Assembly (NCBI GenBank): GCA_023459215.1
Contig: JAEWVF010000018.1
Span: 70,243 to 134,242 of the forward strand
Direction of reading: 5' to 3'
Length of the DNA stretch: 64,000 bases
Source: Chloroflexota bacterium
GTDB lineage: Bacteria > Chloroflexota > Anaerolineae > Anaerolineales > Villigracilaceae
Position 1 is the first letter of the stretch. Each line of letters starts with the position of its first letter. The notes under the pieces are model-generated. The model was not told the origin of the DNA. It worked only from the letters and a program-made list of their open reading frames with translations, and did no database searches. Position numbers and translations under genes: made by a program. This document shows, one piece after another, positions 5,736 to 53,377 of the stretch.

Positions 5736-5765
5736 CCCGCTCGCTTTGATCGAGTTACCTGAACG

Positions 5766-5810
5766 GAAGTAGAAAGCAGGAAGACAACCGCTTTCTACTT
5801 CTTAATTTTT
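5766..5810 (+). terminator. Rho-independent terminator after yloV
   Basis: Perfect 12-bp stem gaagtagaaagc/gctttctacttc followed by ttaattttt. Confidence 0.7.
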
Positions 5811-5821
5811 CTGTAAAAAAT

Positions 5822-13427: not shown

Positions 13428-13456
13428 TTGACGCATATATCCCTTGCATGTATAAT
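13428..13456 (+). promoter_or_regulatory. Near-consensus sigma70 promoter (TTGACG-17 nt-TATAAT) for the 13504-28263 operon
   Basis: ttgacg at 13428-13433, 17-nt spacer, tataat at 13451-13456, AT-rich UP-like region upstream; GAGGA RBS before ATG 13504. Confidence 0.6.
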
Positions 13457-13503: not shown

Positions 13504-14325
13504 ATGGCTCTTCGGGGCAACCTTCGGGATTTTACTGTCACCCAGCTTCTGAATTTGATTAATTTAGCCCATAAGACGGGTACTTTGGTGATTGAAGGCC
13601 CGAACGAGGTCGCCAAGGTATCTTTTCGCGATGGAAAGCTGTCCTACGCCCAGATCGGTCAGGATGATACCCGCCTGGCCTCCGTTTTACACAAATCCAA
13701 CCGCCTGACCACCGGCCAGTTGAGAGCCATCCAACTGCGAGCAACCCATGTATCTGATAAGGAACTGGGTTTGCTCTTGATTAATTCCGGTCACATGACT
13801 CAGGATGATATTCTGGCGGCGCTACAGGCTTATTTCACTGAATCTGTGCGCCGTTTGTTTACCTGGGTGGAGGGGTCTTTTCGTTTTGAAAACGAGATGA
13901 TGCCGCCCGAGGATCGCATTACGGTGCGCCTCGACCTTGAAAACCTGATCATTGAAGGCGCCCGCCAGCTTCGTGAGTTTGAGCAGTTACAGGATGAAAT
14001 CCCCAGCCTGGATATGGCGTTGCGCTTCACCGAACGTCCCGGTTCGAATTTGCAAAAGATGAACCTGAGTGTTGAAGAATGGCGGGTGGTTTCTTATATC
14101 AGCCCGAAAAACACCATCCAGCAGATTGCTTCAGCAGCGAAGATGGGCGATATGGAAATCCGGCGCATTGTCTATGGCCTGATCCAGGCTGGCCTGGTCG
14201 AAGTGATGCGCCCCGAAGGCGCCGCCTCGGCTCAGGAAAAGGCGCGCCCTGCTGTTCCCGCTCAGAACCGGGATGAACAGAAGTCCCTTGTTAATCGTTT
14301 AATAACGCGTATTCGCTCGATATAA
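13504..14325 (+). CDS. DUF4388-domain protein (putative GTPase partner/regulator)
   Basis: N-terminal motif LRGNLRDFTVTQLLNLINLAHKTGTLVIEG characteristic of DUF4388; first gene of operon. Confidence 0.65.
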   Translation: MALRGNLRDFTVTQLLNLINLAHKTGTLVIEGPNEVAKVSFRDGKLSYAQIGQDDTRLASVLHKSNRLTTGQLRAIQLRATHVSDKELGLLLINSGHMTQDDILAALQAYFTESVRRLFTWVEGSFRFENEMMPPEDRITVRLDLENLIIEGARQLREFEQLQDEIPSLDMALRFTERPGSNLQKMNLSVEEWRVVSYISPKNTIQQIASAAKMGDMEIRRIVYGLIQAGLVEVMRPEGAASAQEKARPAVPAQNRDEQKSLVNRLITRIRSI

Positions 14326-14350
14326 TTATTATTTTGAAGGAAAAGTAATT

Positions 14351-14893
14351 ATGCAAACGGTCAAAATGGTCGTCACAGGTCCTTTCAGCGCTGGCAAAAC
14401 GGAATTTATCCGTTCTGTAAGTGAAATTGACGTTGTTGCAACTGAGCGAAAGATTTCATCCGATTCTGAAAGAGCCGTGAAACAGGCTACAACAGTCGCC
14501 ATGGATTTTGGTCGTATTACCGTGGACGAAGACCTGGTGCTTTATCTCTTTGGTACCCCAGGCCAAAAGCGTTTCGATTTCATGTGGGAAATTCTTTCGG
14601 AAGGTATGCTTGGCTTTATTGTCATGGTCGATAGCACCCGCCCGGAAACCTTCCGCGAAGCCCGCTCTATTCTGGAAACTTTCCGCGCTTATGCGCCGAC
14701 GCCGTATGTGGTTGCTGCGAACAAACAGGATGTCGATGACGCCTGGGAGTTGGAAGACATGCGCCATGCCCTGCGCCTGGATAACAAGGTGAAACTTTTA
14801 CCGTGTGTTGCCACGGATAAGAACACTGTCAAAAACGTCTTGCTCGAATTGCTTTACAGCATTCTGGCCGAGATGGAAAATACCGAGAAATAA
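14351..14893 (+). CDS. Small P-loop GTPase of the CvnD/MglA ('ATP/GTP-binding protein') type
   Basis: G1 GPFSAGKT, VSEI, G3 LFGTPGQ, G4 ANKQD; 180 aa. Confidence 0.8.
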   Translation: MQTVKMVVTGPFSAGKTEFIRSVSEIDVVATERKISSDSERAVKQATTVAMDFGRITVDEDLVLYLFGTPGQKRFDFMWEILSEGMLGFIVMVDSTRPETFREARSILETFRAYAPTPYVVAANKQDVDDAWELEDMRHALRLDNKVKLLPCVATDKNTVKNVLLELLYSILAEMENTEK

Positions 14894-14909: not shown

Positions 14910-15710
14910 GTGTCCTCAATCACTACTGACCAGGGTATAGTTCATTATGAAGTTTATGGGCGTGGCCGCCCGGTAATTTTGCTTCACGGATGGCTAGGCT
15001 CGTGGGGATTATGGCAGGAGACCATGGCCTATTTAGGCCGTTCATATCGCACTTATGCGCTCGATTTTTGGGGATTTGGCGAGTCAGGAAAAAAGCGCGA
15101 CACCTACGTTGTCCAGGATTTTGTCAGCCTGGTAGACCAGTTTATGGATCGGCTTGGCATCACCCATGCGCCTCTGGTTGGGCACAGCATGGGCGGAACA
15201 GTCAGCTTGTCGGTTGCGATTCAATTTCCACACCGCGTCAGTAAAGTTGTTGTAGTTGGTTCGCCGATTGTTGGCTCATCCCTGGCGATCCCCCTCAAAC
15301 TGGCCGGGTATCGCGCAATCGCCTTTATGTTGTTCAATATGATGTGGGCCTTTCGGGGGGGGATGAAAGTGGCTTCGCCGTTCATTTGCGCTGACCCGCG
15401 GTTCCCGCAGATGATGGATAAAGACCTCTCCAGCACAACCCTCGAATCTTTCCTGCGCAGCATCGCTTCGTTGCGCCGCACCGATTTGCGCCCGATGCTA
15501 TCGGAAGTGAAAGTGCCAACCATGGGCATTTACGGTGGCCGCGATAATATTGTCCACCCAAAGCAATGGCAGCCTCTTTTGCAGGGGGTTCCGCACTCGA
15601 AGATTGTGTACTGGGAGCGGGCGCAGCATTTTGTCATGCTTGATATGTCGAGAGAATTTACTGAAACGCTGAAATCATTTTTGGATGAGGAAGAGAAACC
15701 TACAGGATGA
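14910..15710 (+). CDS. Alpha/beta-hydrolase-fold enzyme (paralog 1, catalytic Ser intact)
   Basis: HGWLGSW oxyanion region, GHSMGG nucleophile elbow, C-terminal His. Confidence 0.8.
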   Translation: MSSITTDQGIVHYEVYGRGRPVILLHGWLGSWGLWQETMAYLGRSYRTYALDFWGFGESGKKRDTYVVQDFVSLVDQFMDRLGITHAPLVGHSMGGTVSLSVAIQFPHRVSKVVVVGSPIVGSSLAIPLKLAGYRAIAFMLFNMMWAFRGGMKVASPFICADPRFPQMMDKDLSSTTLESFLRSIASLRRTDLRPMLSEVKVPTMGIYGGRDNIVHPKQWQPLLQGVPHSKIVYWERAQHFVMLDMSREFTETLKSFLDEEEKPTG

Positions 15711-16339
15711 ATCCTGCTTCCCTTCATTACCACTATCCAAACCAGATGGGGCGTATCTTGTTGTTATCTGGTGATGAGATATTGGGTCGTCCAGGAATGT
15801 CTGCGGTGTTGAATTCAATCCCAGGCGGCGAACAATTTGTTGAGAGCTATCCCAAGGAATCCCTTGACCTGGAATTTCCTTTCGAGTTGGTTTCGGGTTT
15901 GCAGCTTGGCCTGGAAAGGATTTATGGCCCTCATGGTGGCCGAGGCATTTCCCTGCGAATTGGGCGGGCTTGCTTCCAGCAGGGATTGCGCGAGTTTGGG
16001 CCGCTGTTCGGCTTGACCGACCTCGCCTTTCGGCTTCTACCTTTAAAAACCAAGCTCAAGGTGGGCGCGAACGCATTTGCCGATATTTTTAACAAGCATA
16101 GCGACCAACGTGTCCGCATTGAGGAAGATGAACGAAGCATTTTTTGGATCATTGAACGTTGTCCCGTTTGCTGGCAGCGCCATGCTGATGGCCCTTCCTG
16201 CCACCTGGCGGTTGGACTTTTGCAAGAGGCGCTCTATTGGGCGAGTGGTGGTAAGATATTTCAGGTTGAAGAAACACAGTGCTGTGCCTCCGGCGACTCG
16301 CAATGTGTTATTTTGATCGAGAAGATTCCTCTGGGATAA
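15707..16339 (+). CDS. V4R-domain protein (4-vinyl reductase / Bet3-like small-molecule binding domain)
   Basis: ATGA start/stop overlap with upstream gene; conserved Cys pattern CPVC..CH..CCASGD typical of V4R. Confidence 0.65.
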   Translation: MNPASLHYHYPNQMGRILLLSGDEILGRPGMSAVLNSIPGGEQFVESYPKESLDLEFPFELVSGLQLGLERIYGPHGGRGISLRIGRACFQQGLREFGPLFGLTDLAFRLLPLKTKLKVGANAFADIFNKHSDQRVRIEEDERSIFWIIERCPVCWQRHADGPSCHLAVGLLQEALYWASGGKIFQVEETQCCASGDSQCVILIEKIPLG

Positions 16340-16342
16340 CCC

Positions 16343-17614
16343 ATGCTGAAAATAATTTTGCAGGCCAAGCGGCCTATTTCCCCCTTCAACGAACCGGCGC
16401 GAGATTTACGCATCCAAAACCAGCCGCTTTGGCTGTTGCAGCGCGATGCTTTGGCTCCCTATGTAACCCGTGAGTTGGAAATCCCGGCGAACGCGCGGAT
16501 GCCCCAAATGCAGGAACCGATGCTGGTCTACCGCGACAACCTGTTTTTTGACCAGCCTTATATTGATGAGTTTATCCGCCTGGCGACCAAAAAGAACCGC
16601 CCGGTGCGCGCGGCATTTTCGATTGATGATCCCGCTTTTCGTGAACACGCCCTGCCGCTCTCAGTGTCGTATACCCCTGCCGGGAATTTGTACCTGGCTG
16701 ATCTCTGGTATTATCCGCGCGGCCCGGTAGCCGATGTGGACCCGCTCGTTGTTGATATGCAATCTCGAGAAGTTGGTTATTATCATGTTCCTTCCTATAT
16801 GGCCGGCGAACGCGGCGACTTGGTGTTTCAGGTTCCGCTGCGGGCGATGATGGCCATCGATACCTGGGTGCATATCTTTATTGCGGATGTGGTTTTTGGC
16901 TTATTTAAGCGCGGTAACCGTTTTGAAAACCGGCTTGCGAATGATCTGGCCTTTAAATTGAAAGTTGTCGGCACGGCCATTTATGAAGGTCGCCAGATTC
17001 TGGAATGTTCGGAACTGGTAAAAGTTGGCAAAAACTGCATTATTCACCCTGGGGCAATGATTTTTGGGCCGACCACAATTGGGGATAACGTTCACATCGA
17101 CGCTGGCGCGGTGATCGAAAATTGTATTATTGGCAACAATGTCAATGTTTCCCAAGACTGCCAACTGATGCTCTCGGTGGTTGGGGATGGAACTTTCCTG
17201 CCGTTTAAGGCGGCTTTGTTCATGACCACCATCATGGATAATTCGATGGTCGCCCAGAATACGTGTTTGCAGATGTGTGTTGTTGGGCGCAATACGTTTA
17301 TTGGCGCTGGCTCCACTTTTACTGATTACAACCTGATTCCCGCCCCGATCCGCGCTTTAGATGGAAACGATGAATTGAAGCCTTCCAACCGGCCCGTCTT
17401 GGGCGGCTGCGTAGGCCATAACTGCCGGATTGGCGCGGGCATGATTGTTTACCCGGCTCGCACAATTGAATCAGATGTGGTTTTGGCCGCATCCAAAGAA
17501 CGGCGTGTTATTGACAAGAATGTTCGGTTTGAGGACAGCGATCATCATAAGATGAAAACCTCGAACCAGCACAAAGTGCTTTACCAAAAACAACAGGACC
17601 TTGAGTCGTGGTAA
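16343..17614 (+). CDS. Degenerate sugar-nucleotidyltransferase-like N-domain fused to left-handed beta-helix (hexapeptide-repeat) domain
   Basis: N-terminus KIILQAKRPISPF resembles but lacks the GxGxR motif; C-terminal [LIV]G..x.I hexapeptide repeats. Confidence 0.55.
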   Translation: MLKIILQAKRPISPFNEPARDLRIQNQPLWLLQRDALAPYVTRELEIPANARMPQMQEPMLVYRDNLFFDQPYIDEFIRLATKKNRPVRAAFSIDDPAFREHALPLSVSYTPAGNLYLADLWYYPRGPVADVDPLVVDMQSREVGYYHVPSYMAGERGDLVFQVPLRAMMAIDTWVHIFIADVVFGLFKRGNRFENRLANDLAFKLKVVGTAIYEGRQILECSELVKVGKNCIIHPGAMIFGPTTIGDNVHIDAGAVIENCIIGNNVNVSQDCQLMLSVVGDGTFLPFKAALFMTTIMDNSMVAQNTCLQMCVVGRNTFIGAGSTFTDYNLIPAPIRALDGNDELKPSNRPVLGGCVGHNCRIGAGMIVYPARTIESDVVLAASKERRVIDKNVRFEDSDHHKMKTSNQHKVLYQKQQDLESW

Positions 17615-17617: not shown

Positions 17618-18709
17618 ATGGATACATTTGCATTCATCATCCATCCTATTGACCCGAAGCGCGATGTCAGTAGGAAATACCCCCTGCTGGGCAAATACCT
17701 GACAGAAGGCCAGATAAATTTTTTCTCCACATTCTTTCCGCCGGTATATCTCTCCCAAATCGACGGGATTGTTTCCAAGGCAACCGGCAAAGAGATTAAA
17801 GGTTGGTTTGTTGCCTGCCCTTTTACACCGCGGCGGATGTTGGAATTGCCCGAGAAAATGGTGTATCATAAAATCATTCAGACCGGGAGAATGGCAGAGA
17901 AACTTGGCGCCAATATTCTGGGTTTGGGCGCGTTTACCTCGGTTGTCGGCGACTCGGGCGCTACAATTGCGAAGGCGTTGGATGTACCGGTGACAACCGG
18001 CGACTCTTATACAATTGCCGTGGCGGTCGATGCAATTAAAGAAGCGGCGCGGATCATGGATATTCCGCTTGAATCGGCGACCGCTGCCGTGGTTGGCGCT
18101 ACCGGAACAATAGGAAAAGTCTGCGCAGAACTTCTCGCAGATGCCGTAGGTGAGTTATACTTGGTAGGTCGCCGTGTTGATGCATTGGATGCCTTGCGGG
18201 AAAGAATCGCCAGTCATTCGAAGGCACGGTTATATACCAGCACAAAAATGGATGTATTATCGCGGGCGCAGTTGATTTTGACTGTAACCAGCGCTGTCCA
18301 TGATGTGATCAGGCCGGAACATTTGCAGCCAGGAAGTGTGGTCTGTGATGTCGCCCGGCCTCGCGATGTATCTGCAATGGTCGCAGCGGCGCGAGACGAT
18401 ATACTTGTGATTGACGGCGGCATGGTGGATGTGCCTGGTCCTGTCGATTTTCACTTTAACTTTGGTTTTCCTGCGGGAAAAGCCTATGCCTGTATGGCCG
18501 AAACCATTGCCCTGGCGCTTGAAGGCCGTTTTGAAGATTACACCATCGGCAAGGATATCTCCCGGGCTCGGGTAGAAGAGATTTACGCAATTGCAAACAA
18601 GCATGGCTTTCGTTTGAGCGGATTTCGTTCGTTCGAAAAAGAAGTCACGCAAGAAAAAATTGAAATCATACGCCGCAATGCACATGCCCGCCAGCGGCGA
18701 CAGAATTGA
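17618..18709 (+). CDS. Acyl-ACP reductase (AAR)-like NAD(P)-dependent oxidoreductase
   Basis: Colinear similarity to cyanobacterial AAR: MDTFAFIIHP / LGLGAFTSV / AAVVGATGTIGK Rossmann / SVVCDVARP catalytic-Cys region. Confidence 0.65.
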   Translation: MDTFAFIIHPIDPKRDVSRKYPLLGKYLTEGQINFFSTFFPPVYLSQIDGIVSKATGKEIKGWFVACPFTPRRMLELPEKMVYHKIIQTGRMAEKLGANILGLGAFTSVVGDSGATIAKALDVPVTTGDSYTIAVAVDAIKEAARIMDIPLESATAAVVGATGTIGKVCAELLADAVGELYLVGRRVDALDALRERIASHSKARLYTSTKMDVLSRAQLILTVTSAVHDVIRPEHLQPGSVVCDVARPRDVSAMVAAARDDILVIDGGMVDVPGPVDFHFNFGFPAGKAYACMAETIALALEGRFEDYTIGKDISRARVEEIYAIANKHGFRLSGFRSFEKEVTQEKIEIIRRNAHARQRRQN

Positions 18710-18721: not shown

Positions 18722-19627
18722 ATGGGAAAAGCCCGCCTGCTCATTACCGAAGATGATGTAGACATCTCTAACATGCTCAAGATTTATTTTTCCGGCTTGG
18801 GCTATGATGTCGACGTGGCCATGCGCGGTTCAGAAGCGCTGGAAAAAACACGTCAGGTATTGCCACATCTGATTGTGTTGGATATCATGCTGCCCGATAT
18901 TGACGGGTATGAAGTGTGCCGCACGTTGCGCACCAATACACGTACCAGTCATATTCCGGTCATCTTCTTGACCCAAAAGGATGAGCGCAGCGATCGCTTG
19001 CAGGGCCTCGAACTTGGGGCGGATGATTACATCACCAAACCTTTCGACATTGAAGAATTGAAGCTGCGCGTCCAGGGGGCCATTCGTCGCTCTGAGCGCG
19101 AGAGCCTCACCGATCCGCGCTCTGGTTTGCCGGCCGGACGTTTGATTGAGGAACAACTTCGCAAGATTATCCGCGAAACCGGCTGGTCTTATCTCGATAT
19201 CCGCATCAACAATTTCGAAGCCTTCAAAGATGTTTACGGCTTTGTCGCGGGTGATGATGTCCTGCGCTTTACCGGAATGTTGATTGGCGAAGTTCTCGAT
19301 GAGCTTGGCACCTCTGCCGATTTCATCGGCCACGCTGGCGGCGACAATTTCATCGTGATTACCACTGAGGGCGCGACTCCGGCCATCAGCGCCGCGCTGA
19401 AGAACCGTTTTGCTGAACAGGTTCAGACCCATTACAACTTTATGGATCGCCAGCAGGGTTATATTCTCGCCCCAACCTCTGATGGCCAGACTGAGAAATT
19501 CCCCCTGATGACTTTTGCAATCGGTACGGTGATGCCAACCCAGCAGTCGTTTGCTGATATTCGTGAAATTACTGAACTGGCTGCCGAAGCGCGCCGTCAA
19601 GATGCTGCCAATGCGGTAAAAGGATAA
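18722..19627 (+). CDS. Response-regulator receiver fused to degenerate GGDEF domain (GGDNF)
   Basis: REC motifs (EDD, D in DIMLPDIDG, KP), GGDEF-like fold with HAGGDNF instead of GG(D/E)EF. Confidence 0.75.
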   Translation: MGKARLLITEDDVDISNMLKIYFSGLGYDVDVAMRGSEALEKTRQVLPHLIVLDIMLPDIDGYEVCRTLRTNTRTSHIPVIFLTQKDERSDRLQGLELGADDYITKPFDIEELKLRVQGAIRRSERESLTDPRSGLPAGRLIEEQLRKIIRETGWSYLDIRINNFEAFKDVYGFVAGDDVLRFTGMLIGEVLDELGTSADFIGHAGGDNFIVITTEGATPAISAALKNRFAEQVQTHYNFMDRQQGYILAPTSDGQTEKFPLMTFAIGTVMPTQQSFADIREITELAAEARRQDAANAVKG

Positions 19628-19633: not shown

Positions 19634-22600
19634 ATGTTGGAAGGGCAATCTTTTGCCTGGGGTATAGGTCTGCTGATATTTGGACTGGTGTTTATTCTCC
19701 TGGTCTGGTCGTTCTTGCGCATCATTCCCAGGGTGCGCCCAGCCCAAATCCAGCCTGTACAGCATTCACTGCCCCAGATGCAAGGGAATGACGATGCCGT
19801 TCTGATTGTGCAAACCGGGGGGCGGATTTCATACGTTAATGAAATCGCCAAGGAATGGTTTGATCTGGCAGAAGGGGAGCAGCCCAGTCTTGATCGGATA
19901 GGCCGCAGAGTGCGGCCTGGTGAAACTTTCCTCGAAATATGCGCCGTTCAAGGTCAGGCGCGTTTTTCAATTAATGGCAGGTTGATCGACGCAATTTCCT
20001 ATCCCTTGCCGGGCGAGATTCCCTCCATTCTGGTTGCCATGCGCGCAGCCAAAAGCACTTTGATGGTCGGCAGCCAGGAAGGTCTTTCCGAAAATGCGCT
20101 TAAAACCGTTGCCGATTTCGGTCAGGCGGTCACTTCGAACTTGAGCATTGAAGCCACAGTTCAATCCATCCTGACTCATATCGAGCAACTGGTCGCTTCC
20201 GACTTTTTGGAACTGAAAGTTTGGAATGAGACCCTGGAAAACTTTTCCATTTATCGTATAAGCGGCGCCGATGGGGCGAACCGGAAGGTAATCATCGAGA
20301 AGGAAAGTCAGTTCGGTGATTACGAAAAGCATGTTTTTTCTGCGAAACAGGAATTGGTGATTGACAATACGCGCATGGCTTCCCATGTTCGTTTTGATTT
20401 TAAAGGCAGTTCAGTGCCTCCGATGGGCTCGTATATCGGCTTGCCGCTCGAAACTGCCGGGCAGCAGGTCGGTTTGCTGGAAGTGGGGGTTGTTCCAACC
20501 AACGGGTTTTCACAAGACGATGTCAGCCTGTTGAAGATGGTCAGCGGGCAGGCTGCCGTGGCCGTCCGCAATGCCCGCCTTTATGAAACCCAGGAAAAGT
20601 GGACTACCCAGCTTTTGGGCCTGACCAAACTGTCCCAGGCGGTCGGATCGTTGCGGGACATCAAGGACCTTTTCTCCAGCCTGATCGACGGCTTGTCCCC
20701 GCTGTTCAATGTCAATATCCTCGGCTTTTTACTGTATGATGAACAGCGCCGCATGCTTGAAGGCCAGCCGCCGTTTTTTGGCTTATCCAGCCAGGTGGTT
20801 GATATCTACAAGACCGTTGTTCGGCCCGGCAGCCCGGCTGAGAAACTGATTTTTAGCCAGGATATTCTCTCCAGCCAGAACGCTTCACTTGACCCGGCCT
20901 GGGATGAACTTGGTTTACGTGATATGGCGCAGGCAGCCAGCATGCGCGATACTACCCTGATCCCGCTGATTTCTGCTGGCCGTTTCCTGGGCTATTTACA
21001 GCTTTCAAACCATAAATTTGGCCATTCGCAACTCAACACCGAAGAACTTCAACTCTTAAACCTGGTAGCGAACCAGGTTGCGGCGATGATTGACAACGCT
21101 CTCCTGGTGCAGCAAGCCCGCCAGCGGAATCAACGTTCCGAGGCGATGCGCCGCCTGGCCAGTCTGGTTAGTTCAACGGCAACCCTTGATGAAATTTTGC
21201 GCTTTTCCATCCAGGAGGCCTCTACACTGCTACGCGCCGATATGGGCGCTGCCTTCTTGCTGGATGAGCACGAAGGTTCGATGCATGTTCACGTTGATTC
21301 GGTTTATGGGGTGGATATCGAGAACAGCAAACCCTTAGCGAAAATCAACGTGAAACCGGCTGTTTTTTACCAGACGGTGGCTGGCAGCCAGCGTTCATTT
21401 GTATCTGGCAACCTGACCAAAGACCGGCGAGTTTTGCCCCTCTATCGCGCATTCGTCCGACGCCTAAAGATCGAATCCTGTATTGTCGTACCGCTTGTCG
21501 TCCGTGGACAAGGTATCGGGGAACTGATGTTTGGCGCGCGGGAACAGGAATTGTTCACCAATAGCGATTTGCAGATGGCCGCCATTATCGGCAGCCAGTT
21601 GGCAGTGGCGATTGAAAATGCGCGCTATTCCCAGCATTCCAGGCAGGATGTTAATCTCCAGGCTGAACAGGTAATCCATGTCAGCCGGATCGCCCGCGAA
21701 CTCACCGCAACCAACGATCTCCGGGAACTGCTGCGCCTGATTTACGAAGAGAGTCTCAAGGTGACCAGGGCTGACTGTGGCTCAGTCATGTTCTTCAACT
21801 TCTCCGAAATAGAAGACGACCAACAGCAAGCTCGCACGGTTGTGATGGCTCTCGGGCATTCGCCTGATGCCGATTTGCTCTGGCGGGAGCACATTTCTGT
21901 TTTGAAACATGAGCCGCTTGTGTTGCGCACGGATGGCGACAGCGCTCAACCGCCGCATGATGGCATTGAACGGGTTGTGCTGACGCCGATTACCTATCAG
22001 GATAACCTCTTTGGCTTGATTGAGTTGCATGCCTCCCAGGCGGATGTTTTTGACGGGCCAGTGCTTGAAACCTTGCGTACGCTAGGCATTCAGGCTGCCC
22101 TGGCCATTGCCAACGCTGTTCGTTACCGCGAACAGCGCCAGCGGATTGAATCTTTGCGCACCCGCGCCGAAACGCTGGGATCGTTATTTGAAGTATCACA
22201 AAAACTGGGATTGGATCGCCCGCTTCCCGATATATTAACCATGATTGCGGAATCGATCCAGAAGTCGACCCAGTTCGATGTTATTTTGATCAGCTTGCTC
22301 GATGGCGAAAGCGGACTTTTGCAGCGTACCTCGGCCGTTGGCGTTTCGCCCGAGACTTTTGCGCAATTGCAGGAACACCAACAGCCCTGGGCGAGCCTGG
22401 TTCAACTCCTCAAACCGGAATTTGAGCACGGGAACCTGTATTTCATCCCGCATGAGCAGATTCCCATTGTTTCCAGGGATTTGCAACTGGTTACTTTGAT
22501 TGAAGGCGCTGGCGAGACCCCGAACGCATGGCATCCTGAAGATTTGTTGTTGGTGCCAGTCATGGATCAGCATAACAATCCGCTTGGCTTGATTAGTGTG

Positions 22601-25600
22601 GACGCCCCGCGAGATGGCAAACGCCCTGACGCTGCCACGTTCGACACGCTGGAGATTTTTGCGTCCCAGGTTCAAATTGCAATCAGCAATGCCAAGCGCT
22701 ATGCCGACCTTGGCCGCGAAATGCAGAATTTGTCTGTTGAAGTGCAGCGCCAAAAGAGCCTGGTCGGATTTAGCCAGCGTAACCTGCCGGTCTTGTTGAA
22801 TAAAGACCTTGACCAGACCATTGCGATTAATTATCTCAATCAACGCGCCCGCCATATTCGGGCTGGCTTGAACCTGACCGAGTCAATCAGTCGCCAGATT
22901 AACTTTGGCTCGGCTTTGTATACCCTTGGTCAGCAGGTTTTGTTTAGTTTTGATATGTCGATTTCGCTGGTGGCCAAGGATACCCCTGAAGGTCCCCAGA
23001 TTGTCCATATGCTCGGCAGTTTGCCGCGCGGCGTTAACCCCGATGCCATGTTTGGCCAGCGCAATCCCCTGCGTTCCTGCATCCAGACCGGCGAAACGCT
23101 AATCTCCGCCAACCTGGATGAAGACGAAACCTGGCACGACACGCCTTTCCTGACCGCGCTCAAGGCCAAATCTTTTATTTGTTTACCCCTGGTGGTGAAC
23201 AATAAACCTGTCGCCGCGATTTTGGCCACAGATACCGAGCCGATGCCGGTATTGTCCAAGGATGATCACCAGGTTTATATCCAGATTGCCCGGCAGCTTT
23301 CGATTATTGTTCAGAATATCGGTTTGTTGAGCGAAACTCGCCAGCGCCTCGAAGAAGTTAATCTGCTGCTCGATTTCAGCCGCCGCTTGAGCGGTTTGAG
23401 CCCGACTGAAATCTTGCAGGCCTTGCTCGATAGCTCATTGCGTGTTGTTTCGCCTGCCCATGCCGGTGTGGTTTTGCTTTGGGATGAGTCTGAAGAAGTC
23501 CTTGTGCCAAAAGCGGCCTCCAACTACGTCGATAATGAAAGCACCATGGAAATTACCTATCGCGTGGGCGAAGGTTTGCCGGGCCGCGTATTTGCCAGCC
23601 GCCATTCCCAGATTATCGACGAAATTAATTTCACGGCGGATTACAACCTTTCTGCGGATAGCTTGTTGCTCTATCGTAAGGCTACCGGCGGACGTTTGCC
23701 CGTTTCGTCGATTGCTGTCCCGATCCAGACCAATGAACGCAGCATGGGCATCCTTATCCTCGATAACTTCAACACTACGGCTGCATTCCGCCAGGACGAT
23801 GAAGCTATTCTGTCATCGCTAACCCAGCAGGTTGCCCTGTCGCTTGAGAATGTCCGCCTGGTACAGGCCACCCAGGAGCGCGCAGCCCAACTGCAGGCCC
23901 TTAACTCGGTGGCGGCTGCCCTGAGTTCATCCCTCAACCGCGACGAACTGATTGCCTCGCTCCTTGACCGTATCAGCACGCTGATTGCCTTCGATACGGC
24001 CATTCTGTGGATGCGCTCCGAAGACCAGTTGGTGGTTGCCGAAGCGCGTGGTTTTAGCGACACCGAAGACCGCAAGGGGCTCTCGGTTTCGGTTGAAGAT
24101 AGTATCCTGCTCAAACAGATGATTCAGTCCGGGCAGGCAATTTCAGTGGGTGATGTTCGCACTGACCCGCGCTTCTCCTCGCTGGTCGAAGCCAAGAATT
24201 TATCCTGGCTGGGCTTGCCGATCATGGTCAAGGGGAAGGTGATTGGCGTTATCGCCCTTGAAAAAGCCGAGATGTATTACTACACCAACGACCAAATCCA
24301 ACTGGCGGCGACGTTTGCCAGCCAGGCGGCGGTGGCGATTGATAACGCCAACCTGTTTGAAGAGAGTCTGCGCCGCACCTCTGAACTGGATGAGCGCTCA
24401 CAGCGTTTGGCCTTGCTGAACCAGTTCTCCTCTGACTTGAGCGGTTCACTGAATGCGGATCAGGTTTTGCGCTTGACAGCCAGCCAGTTGACGCGTGCGC
24501 TTGGCGCGGATTCTGCCATGGTGGTTATGCTCGACCGGAATGATAAATCTTTCCTGCTGGCGGTTCTGCCCGAAGAGAACGACCACCCATCCATGTACCG
24601 CGCTCTGCCTTCTTCGCAAATCATGTCCGAATTGCGCGAGTCGCAGACAGTTTACGTTGTCGATAACATCAGTGGTCATCCTGAACTGCAGCCCTTTGCA
24701 GAAATCACCGAAGGCGCCAGTTCCTTGCTGATTTTGCCGGTTTTCAGCTCGCAAAGCAACTATGCAATTATCGTGCTGACCAATGATGTTCATGTTTTCT
24801 CGTCCACTGAGATCGAAATTGCCAGAACCCTTGGAAACCAGGCAGCCATTGCCTTGGAAAATGCCGACCTGTATCAATCGACCCTGGCAACCGCCGAGCG
24901 CTTGTCGATTTTGAACCAGGTCAGTTTTGAGATTGGTTCCAGCCTCGACCCCGAACAGGTTTACCACGCTGTTCACGAGGCGGTCGCCAAACTGATGCCT
25001 CTCGATGCCTTTGTGATTGCCCTTCACGATGAAGAGACCAACGAAGTGGATGGCGTTTATATCGTCGATATGGGCCAACGCATCACCGGCATTCGCCTAC
25101 CTTATGGACAGGGTCTAAGCGGCAACGTGATTGCCACCGGCCAGCCGGTTTTGACCTTGACCTCCTCCGAAGCCGATAACCAGGGAGCGGTTACGGTAGG
25201 CGAAAAGGGAACTCCCAACTCGATTATTGCCGTGCCGATGTTCCAGGGCAGCAAAACCATCGGTATGCTCTCCGCCCAAAGCTATCAGCATAACGCTTAT
25301 TCAGAGAGCGATATTCAGTTGTTGAGCACGTTTGCCAACCAGGCCATGGTTGCCATCCAGAATGGCCGCCTGTTTGCCGAAACCCAACAGATGACTTCCA
25401 CGCTTGAACAGCGCGTTATCGAGCGTACGGCTGAACTGGAGCGTGAACAGCGCAACACAGAAACACTTCTGCGCATTCTCACCGAAGTTTCGTCGAGTCT
25501 TGACCTTGACCGCGCTCTCAGCCGCACCCTGGCCTTGTTGAACGATGCCATTGGCGCCGAACAGGGCACTATCATGCTGCTCAACCCCGAAGACAACATG

Positions 25601-27088
25601 CTTCACTACCGCGCCGGTTACGGTTATCTCTCCGAATCTGCCGAACAGGGTGATTTGAAACCGCAGCAAAACGCGTTCAAGTTGAAGATCGGTGAAGGCC
25701 TGGCCGGGTGGGTGGTGAAAAACCGCCAATCGGTGCTGGTTGAAGACCTGTACACCGACCCGCGCTGGATGGTCTCACAAGGCTCACAGAACCACCGCAG
25801 CGCGGTGATTGCCCCCCTGACGGTGGGCGAGGACGTTATTGGCGCGATCATGGTCTACCACAGGCGCTTGGCGTTCTTCTCTGACGATTCACTCGAAATG
25901 GTCAAGGCGATTGGTTCGCAGGTGGCTATTGCCATTAACAACGCCCAGTTGTACGAATTGATCCGCGACCAGGCGGAGCGCCTTGGCTCCTACCTGCGCT
26001 CCCAGCAGATGGAAGCCAGCCGCCAAACGGCCATCCTCGAAGCGGTTGCCGATGGCGTCCTGGTTACGAATTCGTCCAACACCATTAGTTTCGTCAATCC
26101 CTCTGCGGAGAAGATTCTAAGCATCAACTCGGCCCAAATTTCTGGCCGCTCGCTGGAAAACTTCGCCGGTTTGTTTGGCAAAAGCTCCCAGACCTGGATG
26201 CAAACTGTGCGCGACTGGTCTGAGAACTCCGTCAGCCATAGCGGCGAAACGTATGCAGAGCAAATCAGTCTGGATAACGGTCGTGTGGTTTTGGTGCATC
26301 TGGCCCCGGTAGTCTGGCAAAACGAATTTCTCGGTACGGTTTCCATCTTCCGTGATATTACCCACGAGGTGGAAGTGGACCGGCTCAAGTCCGAGTTTGT
26401 GGCCACCGTCAGCCATGAATTGCGCACCCCGATGACCTCCATCCGCGGCTATGTTGATATCCTGCTGATGGGCGCGGCTGGCGAACTTACCCAGAGCCAA
26501 CTGCACTTCCTTGAAATTGTTAAGAACAACACCGAGCGTTTGAACATCCTGGTCAATGATTTGCTCGATATTTCGCGGATCGAAACCGGGCGCGTCACCC
26601 TCAGTCTGCAACCGATGGATTTGCGCGAGGTGACCGACGAAGTGGTTGCCGAGGTTCTGCGGCGTTCCCAGGAAGAGAACAAGCCGATGGCAATCGAAGT
26701 CGATGCCCAACCCAATTTGCCGCTCGCCCTGGTCGACCCGGATCGCATTCAGCAGATCATAGGCAATTTGGTAGATAATGCCTATAATTACACCCCGAAA
26801 GATGGCAAGATCACCATCCACATCCACAGCGATGGCTCGGATGTACAGGTTGACGTTCAGGATACCGGGGTGGGCATTCCTCTGGAAGACCAGGAGCGTG
26901 TCTTTGAACGTTTCTTCCGCGGCGAAGATCCTTTGGTGCTGGCAACCCCCGGAACAGGCCTGGGACTCTCGATTGTCTCCCAACTGGTCGAGATGCATCA
27001 TGGTAAGATTTGGATGAGAAGTTCCGGCTTGCCCGGCGATGGAAGCACGTTCTCCTTCACCGTGCCAGCCGATAAGAATGAGGAGTAG
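19634..27088 (+). CDS. Giant sensor histidine kinase: N-terminal TM segment, roughly 8-10 tandem GAF domains, PAS domain, HisKA, HATPase_c
   Basis: 2484-aa continuous ORF; H-box SHELRTPMTSIRGY, N/G1/G2 boxes DNAYNYT, QDTGVGIP, GTGLGLSIV. Confidence 0.9.
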   Translation: MLEGQSFAWGIGLLIFGLVFILLVWSFLRIIPRVRPAQIQPVQHSLPQMQGNDDAVLIVQTGGRISYVNEIAKEWFDLAEGEQPSLDRIGRRVRPGETFLEICAVQGQARFSINGRLIDAISYPLPGEIPSILVAMRAAKSTLMVGSQEGLSENALKTVADFGQAVTSNLSIEATVQSILTHIEQLVASDFLELKVWNETLENFSIYRISGADGANRKVIIEKESQFGDYEKHVFSAKQELVIDNTRMASHVRFDFKGSSVPPMGSYIGLPLETAGQQVGLLEVGVVPTNGFSQDDVSLLKMVSGQAAVAVRNARLYETQEKWTTQLLGLTKLSQAVGSLRDIKDLFSSLIDGLSPLFNVNILGFLLYDEQRRMLEGQPPFFGLSSQVVDIYKTVVRPGSPAEKLIFSQDILSSQNASLDPAWDELGLRDMAQAASMRDTTLIPLISAGRFLGYLQLSNHKFGHSQLNTEELQLLNLVANQVAAMIDNALLVQQARQRNQRSEAMRRLASLVSSTATLDEILRFSIQEASTLLRADMGAAFLLDEHEGSMHVHVDSVYGVDIENSKPLAKINVKPAVFYQTVAGSQRSFVSGNLTKDRRVLPLYRAFVRRLKIESCIVVPLVVRGQGIGELMFGAREQELFTNSDLQMAAIIGSQLAVAIENARYSQHSRQDVNLQAEQVIHVSRIARELTATNDLRELLRLIYEESLKVTRADCGSVMFFNFSEIEDDQQQARTVVMALGHSPDADLLWREHISVLKHEPLVLRTDGDSAQPPHDGIERVVLTPITYQDNLFGLIELHASQADVFDGPVLETLRTLGIQAALAIANAVRYREQRQRIESLRTRAETLGSLFEVSQKLGLDRPLPDILTMIAESIQKSTQFDVILISLLDGESGLLQRTSAVGVSPETFAQLQEHQQPWASLVQLLKPEFEHGNLYFIPHEQIPIVSRDLQLVTLIEGAGETPNAWHPEDLLLVPVMDQHNNPLGLISVDAPRDGKRPDAATFDTLEIFASQVQIAISNAKRYADLGREMQNLSVEVQRQKSLVGFSQRNLPVLLNKDLDQTIAINYLNQRARHIRAGLNLTESISRQINFGSALYTLGQQVLFSFDMSISLVAKDTPEGPQIVHMLGSLPRGVNPDAMFGQRNPLRSCIQTGETLISANLDEDETWHDTPFLTALKAKSFICLPLVVNNKPVAAILATDTEPMPVLSKDDHQVYIQIARQLSIIVQNIGLLSETRQRLEEVNLLLDFSRRLSGLSPTEILQALLDSSLRVVSPAHAGVVLLWDESEEVLVPKAASNYVDNESTMEITYRVGEGLPGRVFASRHSQIIDEINFTADYNLSADSLLLYRKATGGRLPVSSIAVPIQTNERSMGILILDNFNTTAAFRQDDEAILSSLTQQVALSLENVRLVQATQERAAQLQALNSVAAALSSSLNRDELIASLLDRISTLIAFDTAILWMRSEDQLVVAEARGFSDTEDRKGLSVSVEDSILLKQMIQSGQAISVGDVRTDPRFSSLVEAKNLSWLGLPIMVKGKVIGVIALEKAEMYYYTNDQIQLAATFASQAAVAIDNANLFEESLRRTSELDERSQRLALLNQFSSDLSGSLNADQVLRLTASQLTRALGADSAMVVMLDRNDKSFLLAVLPEENDHPSMYRALPSSQIMSELRESQTVYVVDNISGHPELQPFAEITEGASSLLILPVFSSQSNYAIIVLTNDVHVFSSTEIEIARTLGNQAAIALENADLYQSTLATAERLSILNQVSFEIGSSLDPEQVYHAVHEAVAKLMPLDAFVIALHDEETNEVDGVYIVDMGQRITGIRLPYGQGLSGNVIATGQPVLTLTSSEADNQGAVTVGEKGTPNSIIAVPMFQGSKTIGMLSAQSYQHNAYSESDIQLLSTFANQAMVAIQNGRLFAETQQMTSTLEQRVIERTAELEREQRNTETLLRILTEVSSSLDLDRALSRTLALLNDAIGAEQGTIMLLNPEDNMLHYRAGYGYLSESAEQGDLKPQQNAFKLKIGEGLAGWVVKNRQSVLVEDLYTDPRWMVSQGSQNHRSAVIAPLTVGEDVIGAIMVYHRRLAFFSDDSLEMVKAIGSQVAIAINNAQLYELIRDQAERLGSYLRSQQMEASRQTAILEAVADGVLVTNSSNTISFVNPSAEKILSINSAQISGRSLENFAGLFGKSSQTWMQTVRDWSENSVSHSGETYAEQISLDNGRVVLVHLAPVVWQNEFLGTVSIFRDITHEVEVDRLKSEFVATVSHELRTPMTSIRGYVDILLMGAAGELTQSQLHFLEIVKNNTERLNILVNDLLDISRIETGRVTLSLQPMDLREVTDEVVAEVLRRSQEENKPMAIEVDAQPNLPLALVDPDRIQQIIGNLVDNAYNYTPKDGKITIHIHSDGSDVQVDVQDTGVGIPLEDQERVFERFFRGEDPLVLATPGTGLGLSIVSQLVEMHHGKIWMRSSGLPGDGSTFSFTVPADKNEE

Positions 27089-53373: not shown

Positions 53374-53377
53374 GGTT

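Follow-up and report, generated by a model that had tools for sequence, protein, structure and literature searches.

Proteins with the fold of cyanobacterial acyl-ACP reductase (AAR) are known to do three jobs, namely alkane biosynthesis, the formation of aldehydes for pyrroles and alkaloids, and a puzzling amidation by a domain of nonribosomal peptide synthetases (NRPS). In cyanobacteria, the genes encoding AAR (aar) and aldehyde-deformylating oxygenase (ado) are usually adjacent. The catalytic cysteines have been identified as Cys294 in AAR and Cys296 in PigE, whose reductase activity is hard to show in vitro (PMC8341465), and the role of a Thr-Thr-Gly (TTG) motif has been described for the homologous domain TAD (bioRxiv 10.1101/2024.10.28.620694).

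The locus described here provides a fourth, unstudied context for the AAR fold: a deeply conserved, order-wide operon of Anaerolineales, filamentous bacteria that are abundant in sludge, sediments, and the subsurface but poorly understood. In this operon, the reductase is enclosed by a transferase-like protein on one side and a two-component system with an exceptional GAF array on the other, beside a small-GTPase switch. A literature search returned no paper on an acyl-ACP reductase in Anaerolineae and none that connects a fatty aldehyde with a histidine kinase and a GAF domain.

Affiliation and fold of the reductase

The reductase gene (17618-18709, forward strand; all positions refer to the window, i.e., the entire 64-kb stretch of DNA that was analysed) encodes a stand-alone thioester reductase of the AAR/PigE-N type in the COG5322 superfamily. 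The reading frame of 363 codons runs from ATG to stop exactly as in the original prediction, and the four motifs quoted there (MDTFAFIIH, GLGAFTS, VVGATGTIGK, and SVVCDVARP) are all present. Orthologues with 75-92% sequence identity were found at 80 loci of 80 genomes, all from the order Anaerolineales.

The colinear likeness to AAR that had been noticed in the sequence is well above chance. Searches of the protein against AAR in the PDB (phmmer; 6jzq, residues 11-332) and against the AAR equivalog model (TIGR04058) yielded E-values of 6.8e-26 and 6.8e-32, respectively. An AlphaFold2 model (pLDDT 96.3) comprises both the N-terminal lobe and the Rossmann/C-terminal lobe of the full-length AAR fold; its top match in Foldseek is AAR (6jzu_A; E = 3.7e-24, TM 0.78/0.83, 355 aligned columns), followed by TAD of the carmabin pathway (9e4u; E = 3e-20, TM 0.77). 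The structures of shikimate dehydrogenase and GluTR reach TM scores of only 0.3-0.5. The family model of HemA (TIGR01035) matches the Rossmann region alone and scores 35 bits where 209.55 would be required, and its Foldseek TM score is about 0.3.

Judged by its sequence, fold, NADPH motif, and nucleophilic cysteine, the protein truly belongs to the AAR superfamily. With AAR, PigE-N, and TAD it has in common the fold, a cysteine (Cys292) at the start of a helix and opposite the nicotinamide, and the TTG motif (residues 126-128). The search with the AAR model that had been suggested as a check identifies a relative within the superfamily but not an orthologue of AAR: the score of 111.1 bits falls far short of the cutoff of 449.7 bits, and sequence identity to AAR is about 27%. 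Because it fails this equivalog threshold, the protein is properly labelled AAR-like rather than AAR, and it represents an uncharacterised branch of its own. In terms of sequence, its closest characterised relative is not AAR but the N-terminal thioester-reductase domain of PigE (216 vs. 111 bits). It matches the N-terminal half of the PigE model (NF053554, profile positions 2-362 of 837; E = 8e-64) and the PigE structure 4ppm (E = 1e-37), but it lacks the Aminotran_3 domain and does not approach the score of at least 850 bits needed for a PigE equivalog.

Catalytic cysteine and cofactor site

The predicted acyl-enzyme nucleophile is Cys292 (AYACMAETIALALEG; YACMAET; 18491-18493, forward strand). 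It is equivalent to Cys294 of AAR, with which it aligns at the start of the helix that carries the motif FACFAE, and to Cys296 of PigE. Cys292 is conserved in all 80 orthologues and in 65 of 71 diverse relatives, and it is invariant in an alignment of 59 sequences (A2). The TTG motif (Thr126-Thr127-Gly128 in VPVTTGDSY; 17993-18001, forward strand), which in this superfamily packs against the catalytic cysteine at the junction, is also present in each of the orthologues (80/80), and Gly128 is invariant among the 71 diverse relatives. The same holds for the GxxGxxG motif of the Rossmann dinucleotide-binding loop (G160-A-T-G-T-I-G166; 18095-18115, forward strand), which aligns with GATGDIG of AAR and is intact in 80/80 orthologues. 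Taken together, Cys292, TTG, and GxxGxxG are each found in 65-71 of the 71 diverse relatives.

Arg185 (nucleotides 18170-18172), located at the end of strand beta-2, aligns with the motif TARN of AAR and is conserved in 79 of 80 orthologues. Its position suggests that NADPH is favoured over NADH, and the combination of GATGTIG (160-166) with Arg185 corresponds, at the level of sequence, to the NADPH site of AAR.

The original prediction had placed the catalytic cysteine in the motif SVVCDVARP, but this assignment does not hold. The cysteine in question, Cys243 (18344-18346, forward strand), aligns with an isoleucine in both AAR (VLIDGGYP) and PigE (IFIDVALP) and is not the nucleophile of the family. 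It lies in a D-x-x-x-P loop that probably contacts the cofactor, considering its homology with IDGGYP of AAR and DDSG-cisP of TAD, and it is conserved within the subfamily (80/80 orthologues; 55/71 diverse relatives). When Cys292 is taken as the nucleophile, the conservation of catalytic cysteine and NADPH motif that the original prediction had proposed to check is indeed found among the orthologues.

A conserved operon of sensors and switches

In Anaerolineales, the reductase is the sixth gene in a block of eight that encodes sensor and switch proteins and is presumably co-transcribed. The order of the unit is PATAN, MglA-like GTPase, alpha/beta hydrolase, V4R, LbH, reductase, REC-GGDNF, and multi-GAF kinase, all on the forward strand. 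Intergenic gaps range from -4 to 25 nt and measure 3-12 nt around the reductase. A possible operon promoter is the best sigma-70-like match (TTGACG-17-TATAAT, 11/12; 13428-13456), which precedes the first gene by about 48 nt. Apart from this good -35/-10 match, the scans for promoters and terminators remained at background level, and the 17 promoter-like sites of the region are not clearly above the expectation from shuffled sequence (12 +/- 3.4).

The block begins with a DUF4388 (PATAN-type) protein of 273 amino acids (13504-14325; Pfam DUF4388, E = 1.3e-26), which precedes a small GTPase of 180 amino acids that resembles MglA and CvnD (14351-14893; Pfam ATP_bind_1, 1.8e-21; Ras, 1.3e-10; TIGR00231 small_GTP). 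An association of PATAN domains with MglA-type GTPases has been published (PMC4316618). An alpha/beta-fold hydrolase of 266 amino acids (14910-15710; Abhydrolase_1, 2.2e-28) follows, whose stop codon overlaps by 4 nt with the start of a V4R-domain protein of 210 amino acids with a cysteine-rich C-terminus (15707-16339; Pfam V4R, 2.3e-09; CPVC...C...CC...C). The V4R/TRAPPC3 fold is known to bind palmitate or phenols and contains a zinc site of four cysteines (PMC10933270), and the V4R protein is predicted to bind a hydrophobic small molecule.

Immediately upstream of the reductase lies a gene for a left-handed beta-helix (LbH) protein with hexapeptide repeats (423 amino acids; 16343-17614; Hexapep, 3.9e-15; LbH_EIF2B), which carries the name "multidrug transporter" in the databases, one of the names to be corrected. 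A profile search against the PDB yielded a match to GlmU at positions 193-271, which extends from a linker helix into the LbH, whereas the N-terminal stretch of about 190 residues has no match in the sequence and profile searches of the PDB. The acyl-ACP-using LbH enzymes of the LpxA/LpxD type are weak matches. The AlphaFold2 model of this protein is unreliable (pLDDT 48), with a shallow alignment of 28 sequences at >=76% identity.

Downstream of the reductase, the block continues with a response regulator (18722-19627) that combines an intact REC domain (DIMLPD; Response_reg, 2.4e-27) with a degenerate GGDEF domain (GGDNF, nucleotides 19337-19351; 4.6e-09, a partial match that covers profile positions 3-108 of 161). 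The regulator has no DNA-binding domain and does not carry the diguanylate cyclase signature GG[DE]EF. Among its orthologues, DIMLPD is always present (80/80) and GGDNF is found in 72 of 79, but never GG[DE]EF. Because the GGDEF domain is degenerate, any link of this particular operon to c-di-GMP is putative. The last gene encodes a histidine kinase of 2484 amino acids (19634-27088) with one N-terminal transmembrane helix, about 10-11 GAF domains (GAF_2 in 10 stretches, GAF in 11), PAS, HisKA, and HATPase_c. The single helix comprises residues ~4-34 and there is no periplasmic domain, which means that the kinase must sense either intracellularly or within the membrane.

The neighbours named in the original prediction, namely the LbH protein, the V4R protein, and alpha/beta hydrolases at 14910-15710 and 27478-28263, were correctly recognised. 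The most prominent features of the locus, the downstream regulator with its 2484-aa kinase and the upstream PATAN/GTPase pair, had been missed. FakA/DegV at 4095-6679 belong to the usual fakA-recG housekeeping arrangement and lie outside the conserved block.

The reductase is situated between the LbH protein and the REC-GGDNF regulator in each of the 80 Anaerolineales loci, and the adjoining LbH protein is 68-96% identical throughout. The N-terminal part of the kinase is encoded downstream in 77 of 80 loci, the PATAN protein upstream in 55 (64-92% identity), the GTPase in 58 (84-99%), the hydrolase in 63, and the V4R protein in 61. Even the divergent locus L110 has retained all eight genes, although its reductase and GTPase are only 65% and 79% identical, respectively. 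None of these loci contains a second AAR-like paralogue.

Signalling links in sister clades

In an unbootstrapped neighbour-joining tree, the LbH-linked reductases form an exclusive clade, and fusions of the reductase with an SRPBCC domain, some of them with an additional PilZ domain, appear as a separate sister clade. In the SRPBCC class, a 7TM-GAF kinase is encoded within two genes downstream at all five informative loci (P0260, P0278, P0321, P0329, and P0304), and the outputs of the response regulators are of the guanylate-cyclase or HD-GYP type. The genes between reductase and kinase encode a class-III aminotransferase at one locus and a GMC oxidoreductase at another, both of which act on aldehydes or alcohols. 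The reductases P0260, P0289, and P0304 carry a fused PilZ domain, and the relative P0367 is fused directly with a GAF domain. Fusions with an aminotransferase also occur among the sister clades. The contigs of four close stand-alone representatives (P0241, P0243, P0247, and P0286) are too short to show their context.

A member of another clade, P0255, lies among genes for a phasin, a patatin, SCP2, an iron-dependent alcohol dehydrogenase (Fe-ADH), and PlsC/DAGAT, a lipid context that supports acyl substrates. The largest branch of the superfamily (~47 of 75 loci, i.e., most of the wider family) is linked to an uncharacterised partner family, here called c1; its members are located among dus, greA, and lysS and have no signalling neighbours. 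Fusion proteins of about 700 amino acids carry an N-terminal domain of about 300 residues that is homologous to c1. When this domain was considered as a possible counterpart of the neighbours in the window (LbH, V4R, alpha/beta hydrolase, and others), there were no blastp matches. The c1 family is absent from the window and from the surroundings of the Anaerolineales orthologues, with the sole exception of locus L027, which has a truncated copy 8 kb upstream.

Role of the reductase

The reading that we favour, with a probability of roughly 40%, is that of a stand-alone, cytoplasmic, cysteine-dependent NAD(P)H thioester reductase of the LbH-linked clade that serves as the metabolic arm of a signalling module rather than in bulk hydrocarbon synthesis. 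If the enzyme works in the manner of AAR and PigE, an acyl group would be transferred from a carrier thioester (acyl-ACP or acyl-CoA) to Cys292, and the acyl-enzyme would be reduced by NADPH bound at GATGTIG and Arg185, with the release of an aldehyde. The reductase and the LbH protein, possibly together with the hydrolase, would produce or modify, within the cell, a small hydrophobic molecule of lipid origin, which may be the ligand of the V4R protein and/or of the GAF array of the adjacent kinase. An acyl-activating or obvious aldehyde-consuming enzyme is not encoded in the operon, and the window contains no class-III aminotransferase, Fe-ADH, ACP, or acyl-CoA/ACP synthetase. The proposal of a signalling intermediate in the original prediction gains contextual support from the invariant operon with its regulator and multi-GAF kinase and from the kinase, PilZ, and GAF links of the sister clades, whereas the fatty acyl substrate, the aldehyde product, and the use of NADPH are putative, as is the role of the enzyme as producer of the signal rather than as an output under its control.

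It is possible, albeit unlikely, that the direction is the opposite, with the enzyme as the pathway's output. It would convert an acyl-thioester to an aldehyde and perhaps, together with the LbH protein and the hydrolase, to an alcohol, wax, or ether lipid, and would adjust membrane or storage lipids under the post-translational control of the kinase and the REC-GGDNF regulator or, in the sister clades, of c-di-GMP via PilZ. The PilZ fusions fit such a c-di-GMP-controlled output equally well, considering that c-di-GMP receptors normally sit on the regulated effector. Also the regulator, which has no DNA-binding domain and whose degenerate GGDEF could act by protein contact, the neutral-lipid cluster around P0255, and the use of acyl-ACP by LpxA and LpxD, even though these match the LbH protein only weakly, are consistent with an output. 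By contrast, the gene order of the SRPBCC class, in which a synthase-like enzyme or enzymes and an aminotransferase or GMC oxidoreductase precede a 7TM receptor kinase, more closely resembles a small-molecule pathway next to its receptor. Moreover, the presence of the V4R protein and of 10-11 GAF domains implies that ligands are sensed by products of this very operon, and genes for membrane lipids (PlsC, glycosyltransferases, ACP) are absent from the operon of Anaerolineales.

If the favoured role as a signal-producing arm is extended beyond this order, AAR-like reductases outside cyanobacteria might be synthases of unrecognised lipid-derived signals, i.e., fatty aldehydes, amines, or alcohols. 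In the SRPBCC clade, such signals would act on 7TM-GAF kinases and, through these, on cyclic-nucleotide regulators; in Anaerolineales, the LbH protein and the reductase would make a signal that is read intracellularly by the V4R protein and the 10-GAF kinase, with the PATAN/MglA switch coupled to it. We regard this generalisation as doubtful, but if true, it would reveal a new and widespread system of metabolite-based signalling. The context of the operon and the links of the sister clades to kinases, PilZ, and GAF domains make the signalling hypothesis testable: an aldehyde derived from an acyl-thioester, or a derivative thereof, may serve as a signal within the cell or its membrane, or the production of fatty aldehydes may be gated directly by cyclic-nucleotide signalling.

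A non-reductive or redox-neutral reaction of the Cys292 acyl-enzyme, similar to that proposed for TAD, is improbable. In this case, the LbH protein would, for example, provide an amine or hydroxyl to which the acyl group is transferred, and NAD(P) would have a structural or transient role. The structure of TAD is the second-best match of the model, with the cysteine, the TTG motif, and the cofactor tunnel in common, and the invariant partner of the reductase has a transferase-type fold rather than that of an aldehyde consumer. In TAD, the acyl group is apparently not simply released as an aldehyde despite the same cysteine and cofactor site, an observation that speaks against the preferred reading and indicates that fold and cysteine do not fix the reaction. 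The sequence of the protein, however, is far closer to the thioester reductases PigE-N and AAR, and TAD was not detected by sequence at all. An arginine in the position of Arg185 is characteristic of reductases that use NADPH, in contrast to the NAD-selecting aspartate of TAD, and the partners of sister clades (fused aminotransferases; Fe-ADH and GMC oxidoreductases as neighbours) use aldehydes.

Little probability is also assigned to the view that the gene arrangement is merely inherited synteny within one order and that the reductase is a housekeeping enzyme without a functional link to its neighbours. Most family members, namely those of the c1-linked and c1-fused clades, lack signalling neighbours, and the 80 close loci all stem from the same order and are not independent evidence. 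Nevertheless, the gaps around the gene are short (3-12 nt), the gene order persists down to 62-65% identity while the flanking genes change, and the linkage to a kinase is seen again, independently, in the SRPBCC clade, where the architecture of the kinase differs, in addition to the PilZ and GAF fusions.

An ordinary AAR of the alkane pathway, with an ADO encoded elsewhere in the genome, is very improbable. The automatic annotation of many orthologues in IMG as "fatty aldehyde-generating acyl-ACP reductase" would be in agreement, but this name is to be corrected, since the protein scores only 111 of the 449.7 bits required by TIGR04058, is merely ~27% identical to AAR, and belongs to a separate clade in the neighbour-joining tree. 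A PDB-validated ADO probe gave only noise (E > 0.7) in the 64-kb window and within +/-8 kb of the 80 related loci, unlike the usual adjacency in cyanobacteria, and Pfam scans detected no ferritin-like oxygenase among the other large open reading frames of the window. The original placement of the reductase outside the alkane pathway of cyanobacteria, with no ADO partner in the regions searched, is thereby supported.

A shikimate/quinate or amino-acid dehydrogenase is hardly credible, although Shikimate_DH is the sole Pfam match (39 bits, above cutoff) and orthologues are named "shikimate dehydrogenase" or "predicted amino acid dehydrogenase" in NCBI and COG, because the match is limited to the Rossmann segment (residues 143-260), the AroE model NF001312 yields ~19 bits against a cutoff of 295, the TM scores with AroE and amino-acid dehydrogenases are 0.35-0.5 compared to 0.8 for AAR over the full length, and the conserved Cys292/TTG site is that of an acyl-thioester reductase. 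An unrelated NAD-binding protein with an unconserved cysteine, which would have overturned the original prediction, is therefore not what the profiles, structures, and orthologues (Cys292, 80/80) indicate, and the name "shikimate dehydrogenase" should be corrected.

Comparison with known systems

PigE-N of the MAP pathway of prodigiosin biosynthesis (4ppm) and its counterparts in TamH and KecF have in common with the reductase of Anaerolineales the CMAET motif, the equivalent cysteine (C296 = C292), and the D-x-x-x-P loop, and probably also the reduction of a thioester to an aldehyde. However, in PigE, TamH, and KecF the aldehyde is consumed by a fused class-III aminotransferase, and the genes lie in clusters for secondary metabolites, whereas the protein of Anaerolineales is stand-alone and is accompanied by LbH and signalling genes; in the unbootstrapped tree, PigE groups with the aminotransferase-fused proteins rather than with the reductase of Anaerolineales.

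AAR of Synechococcus elongatus (6jzq/6jzu) shares the two-lobe fold, the GATGxIG loop, the TTG motif, and the equivalent of Cys294, and its ping-pong mechanism with an acyl-enzyme would also be expected here. It differs by the isoleucine in the position of Cys243, by its host (cyanobacteria vs. Chloroflexota), and by an entirely different genomic context. TAD of CarI in the carmabin NRPS (9e4u) shows the same invariant cysteine, TTG motif, and cofactor tunnel, but it is a C-terminal domain of an NRPS that is NAD-specific by virtue of its aspartate and probably catalyses an amidation, whereas the reductase of Anaerolineales is a discrete protein with an arginine in the position of the 2'-phosphate.

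A fatty-acyl-thioester-using enzyme that is encoded beside the kinase sensing its hydrophobic product is found in cqsA-cqsS of Vibrio and lqsA-lqsS of Legionella. The resemblance is one of analogy, because CqsA is a PLP enzyme without homology to the reductase and the kinase of Anaerolineales has no ligand-binding domain in the membrane. The conservons of Streptomyces (CvnA-D) likewise encode a histidine kinase together with an MglA-like GTPase (PMC4316618); again, this is an analogy, with Roadblock and DUF742 in the conservons but PATAN and V4R in the operon of Anaerolineales.

A parallel in gene context is provided by the uncharacterised SRPBCC-(PilZ)-reductase fusions, whose reductase domain is 39-44% identical and has retained both the cysteine and the VVCD motif. 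They differ in having a START-like lipid-binding domain instead of LbH, a 7TM receptor kinase instead of a giant kinase with a single transmembrane helix and 10 GAF domains, and regulator outputs of the guanylate-cyclase or HD-GYP type instead of a degenerate GGDEF. In both cases, however, the reductase gene is in close linkage with genes for a histidine kinase that contains GAF domains and for a regulator without a DNA-binding domain whose output domain is of a nucleotide-signalling type.

Fold, active site and family of the reductase

The open reading frame at 17618-18709 (+) comprises 363 codons from ATG to stop, exactly at these coordinates, and its product contains every peptide motif quoted in the original prediction, which had likened it to cyanobacterial acyl-ACP reductase (AAR). 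This likeness holds up: residues 29-332 match the AAR model TIGR04058 (E 6.8e-32, 111 bits), phmmer against the PDB aligns the AAR chains 6jzq and 6jzu with residues 10-332 (E ~7e-26), and an AlphaFold2 model (pLDDT 96.3, pTM 0.93; 71-sequence alignment as input) retrieves AAR entries as Foldseek hits 1-7 in the PDB (E 1e-20 to 4e-24, TM 0.76-0.83, ~355 aligned columns). Orthology with AAR is ruled out, because TIGR04058 has a curated equivalog cutoff of 449.7 bits, far above the 111 bits reached, so that the AAR label stands for superfamily likeness and falls for orthology. The best-scoring model is that of the N-terminal half of PigE, the prodigiosin-pathway reductase-aminotransferase (NF053554, positions 2-362 of 837; 216 bits, E 8e-64), and PigE is also the best PDB sequence match (4ppm, E 1e-37). 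Fold, cysteine and Thr-Thr-Gly motif identify the reductase as a member of a broader Cys-dependent superfamily that includes AAR, the N-terminal region of PigE, and the terminal amidation domain (TAD) of the carmabin NRPS.

Pairwise alignments place Cys292 (AYACMAETIALALEG, nt 18491-18493) in the column of AAR Cys294 (..QMFACFAEAMLLEFEG) and PigE Cys296 (..NGCMAETIVLALEN); the latter two had already been equated when the N-terminal region of PigE was reread as an AAR-like thioester reductase (PMC8341465). Like this region, KecF carries a COG5322 domain (PMC6498172). The catalytic cysteine had originally been sought in SVVCDVARP, but that residue, Cys243, shares its column with isoleucine in both AAR and PigE, and the counterpart of the nucleophile is Cys292. 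Cys243 is located within a conserved D-x-x-x-P loop; because the equivalent loop in the TAD structure lines the nicotinamide (bioRxiv 10.1101/2024.10.28.620694), it may be a cofactor-loop residue specific to the subfamily of the reductase.

The reductase is under strong purifying selection. All 80 Anaerolineales orthologues retain Cys292 and Glu295, as well as the Thr-Thr-Gly junction motif at 126-128 and the GATGTIG loop at 160-166; Arg185, which follows beta-2, is kept in 79 of them. Among 71 relatives with identities down to 33%, G160 and G128 are invariant, Cys292 is present in 65, and Cys243 in 55.

A conserved eight-gene block

Eight co-directional genes with intergenic spacings of -4 to 25 nt make up a block, in which the reductase gene comes sixth. 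The block is headed (13504-14893, +) by a DUF4388/PATAN protein (13504-14325, +) and an MglA/CvnD-like small GTPase (14351-14893, +); pairs of PATAN proteins and MglA-type GTPases, and "conservons" of kinase and GTPase, are recognised signalling associations (PMC4316618). Then follow an alpha/beta hydrolase (14910-15710, +), a V4R protein (15707-16339, +), a left-handed beta-helix (LbH) protein of 423 aa (16343-17614, +), the reductase, a REC-GGDEF-like response regulator (18722-19627, +), and a histidine kinase of 2484 aa (19634-27088, +). The LbH, V4R, and alpha/beta hydrolase neighbours are present as originally described. A second alpha/beta hydrolase, a 30-40% identical paralogue of that in the block, lies directly 3' of the kinase (27478-28263, +).

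A species-level scan with one genome each yielded 419 loci with relatives of the reductase. The best 80 of these 419, with reductases 74-92% identical to the query, stem from Chloroflexota MAGs, mostly Anaerolineales, with one Nitrotoga-labelled exception. That 4.2-kb contig (L007, CAZPUT010000081.1, "uncultured Candidatus Nitrotoga sp.") carries the hydrolase, V4R, LbH, reductase and regulator genes at 83-93% identity and is probably mis-binned. By tblastn, the LbH, reductase, and regulator genes are adjacent in all 80 loci, the N-terminal part of the kinase lies downstream in 77, and the PATAN, GTPase, hydrolase, and V4R genes lie upstream in 55-63, a shortfall caused in part by short contigs, with about 10 loci lacking these genes nearby. 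In a metagenome locus (L110) whose reductase is just 65% identical, all eight genes are kept in the same order. Of the proteins encoded in the block, the GTPase varies least, with 84-99% identity across the order.

Genes beyond the block, namely TPR and LysM, RecG and CoaD on the upstream side, and cytochrome b561 and NDH-2 on the downstream side, are not conserved or unrelated. The window also encodes a fatty-acid kinase pair FakA + DegV 5' of recG (4095-6679, +), two tandem cytochrome b561 genes beside NDH-2 (28327-29423, -), a Castor/Pollux-type RCK ion channel (33385-35370, -), a cytochrome P450 (46596-47963, -), and a DICT-domain class-III nucleotide cyclase (52048-53433, -). The best promoter-like match of the region is directly 5' of the first gene of the block; promoter and terminator scans across the block region were at background level overall. 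The eight genes are presumably co-transcribed, and their operon-like arrangement ties the reductase to the LbH protein, a two-component system, and a small-GTPase module.

Proteins of the V4R/TRAPPC3 fold bind hydrophobic molecules, palmitate in the case of TRAPPC3 and phenols in that of PoxR, and have a 4-Cys Zn site (PMC10933270), which the Cys-rich C-terminus of the V4R protein in the window matches. The N-terminal domain of the LbH protein matched nothing in PDB sequence and profile searches, and the predicted model of the protein is of low confidence. The receiver motif DIMLPD of the regulator is intact in all 80 orthologues. Its GGDEF signature (19337-19351) reads GGDNF in 72 of 79 orthologues and GG[DE]EF in none, suggesting that the regulator is probably not a diguanylate cyclase; there is no RxxD I-site five residues before the signature, and the conserved degenerate domain probably serves as a binding or interaction module instead. 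The kinase has one TM helix, at its N-terminus, lacks a periplasmic domain, and carries 10-11 GAF domains in tandem ahead of PAS, HisKA, and HATPase; it is conserved 3' of the reductase in Anaerolineales. Its N-terminal third varies far more (37-86% identity) than does the kinase core at the C-terminus (63-90%).

The predicted lack of an aldehyde-deformylating oxygenase (ADO) partner was borne out: a probe with a full-length match to the PDB "aldehyde decarbonylase" 4quw and 6jzu_B (507 bits) gave nothing better than E 0.7 by tblastn and phmmer in the window and the 80 orthologous loci. Pfam detected no ferritin-like oxygenase, class-III aminotransferase, Fe-ADH, or ACP among essentially all large open reading frames of the window. 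Locally, both are absent: ADO from the window and the related loci, an aldehyde-consuming enzyme from the window.

Distribution and partners in the wider family

Run exhaustively against 1.84 billion cluster representatives, phmmer returned 3326 clusters at E<1e-3, with 879 at E<1e-30. Outside the Anaerolineales group, the nearest relatives share 45-56% identity with the reductase. The top 150 representatives divide as follows: 72 are stand-alone, 22 are fragments, 35 are fused to an N-terminal domain of ~300 aa, 11 to an SRPBCC/START-like lipid-binding domain, and 4 to a class-III aminotransferase (PigE/TamH type); 6 are other long forms. A metagenome scan led by the family consensus gave 80 diverse loci, 6 of which have the LbH-reductase-regulator arrangement. 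Of the 75 that include a complete reductase gene, ~47 have a gene of ~307 aa (c1; for example L097:990-1913, among L089-L168) directly 5' of it, in the neighbourhood tilS-hpt-ftsH-birA-bioY-coaX-dus ... greA-lysS; these regions between dus and greA-lysS look like Firmicutes-type housekeeping. The c1 product has no match in Pfam, NCBIfam, or the PDB, and the reductase fusions of ~700 aa have an N-terminal domain homologous to it (E ~1e-15; e.g., P0255, P0263, P0298). Backed by these fusions, c1 and the reductase are a strong functional pair. No c1 was found beside the Anaerolineales reductase gene. In one Anaerolineae locus, a truncated homologue (L027:1-~900, +; c1 HMM score 220 bits) lies ~8 kb 5' of the LbH-linked reductase and is not accompanied by a second reductase gene, a hint that c1 may occur separately in some Chloroflexota.

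In an unbootstrapped neighbour-joining tree of 204 reductase domains rooted with AAR, 11 LbH-linked sequences form an exclusive clade, and the c1-linked, c1-fused, SRPBCC-fused, and aminotransferase-fused groups (PigE included) are largely coherent.

Possible functions

The reductase combines a full-length AAR fold with the family nucleophile and dinucleotide site, belongs to a clade of its own, and has no ADO nearby. Each statement on its function is based on comparative genomics. By analogy with AAR and PigE, an acyl group would move from ACP or CoA onto Cys292 and be reduced there by NADPH to an aldehyde. The LbH protein or the hydrolase might modify the product, which would then act as a ligand for the V4R or GAF sensors of the block. 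We assign a probability of roughly 0.4 to this reading, in which the product is a signal metabolite sensed by V4R/GAF proteins.

Sister clades have analogous kinase, PilZ, and GAF couplings. In the SRPBCC-fusion clade, a HisKA_7TM-GAF histidine kinase is encoded at most two genes downstream of the reductase on every contig with sequence on that side, although such contigs are few (five loci, at least 4 cluster representatives). The 7TM-GAF kinase overlaps the reductase stop by 4 nt in L082-L084 (P0260), as does the kinase in L087 (P0278), whose contig holds the 7TM start only; in L170 (P0321), it directly follows the reductase gene and precedes a REC-guanylate-cyclase-type regulator. In L171 (P0329), it follows a class-III aminotransferase, with a REC-HD-GYP regulator and, further on, SDR and ACP; in L172 (P0304), a GMC oxidoreductase intervenes. 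The intervening enzymes act on aldehydes or alcohols, consistent with an aldehyde product. One of the other long forms (P0367) joins the reductase domain to a GAF domain.

The same chemistry could follow the reverse logic, with the reductase as the controlled output of a signalling pathway. This is favoured by the PilZ c-di-GMP-receptor domain of three SRPBCC fusions (P0260, P0289, and P0304, the last with an HTH domain as well), but the order from enzyme to receptor kinase in this clade and its aldehyde-converting neighbours favour signal production. A regulated output is the main rival and somewhat less probable. The c1 fusion P0255 (L086; GCA_016199465.1, JACQGR010000302.1) lies near genes for phasin, PHB_acc_N, two patatins, SCP2, Fe-ADH, SDR/epimerase, and PlsC/DAGAT-like proteins, a neutral-lipid context that looks like a storage-lipid or wax-ester-type pathway.

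Non-reductive, TAD-like chemistry is improbable. Equally little weight falls on conserved synteny of the block without a functional link. Source databases name the protein "shikimate dehydrogenase", "predicted amino acid dehydrogenase", "fatty aldehyde-generating acyl-ACP reductase", or "hypothetical", but a classical AAR is contradicted by the equivalog score and the lack of an ADO nearby, and a shikimate or amino-acid dehydrogenase by Foldseek, where these enzymes and glutamyl-tRNA reductases reach only TM 0.3-0.5, and by the confinement of the Pfam Shikimate_DH match (39 bits) to the Rossmann segment (residues 143-260), which makes either identity very unlikely.

Comparison with known systems

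Literature searches in the available library turned up nothing on Anaerolineae homologues of AAR and nothing on GAF kinases that sense fatty aldehydes. Because of this, and because neither curated family fits, we regard the partner set and the signalling-centred context as new, on an enzyme fold that is known. Discrete TAD homologues without an assigned function are explicitly noted in the TAD preprint (bioRxiv 10.1101/2024.10.28.620694). The reductase would work like AAR, although it scores below the AAR equivalog cutoff and has no ADO partner nearby; its working would also resemble that of the N-terminal region of PigE, whose aminotransferase half it lacks. It thus appears to share the mode of action of AAR or PigE-N, yet stands outside both curated families.
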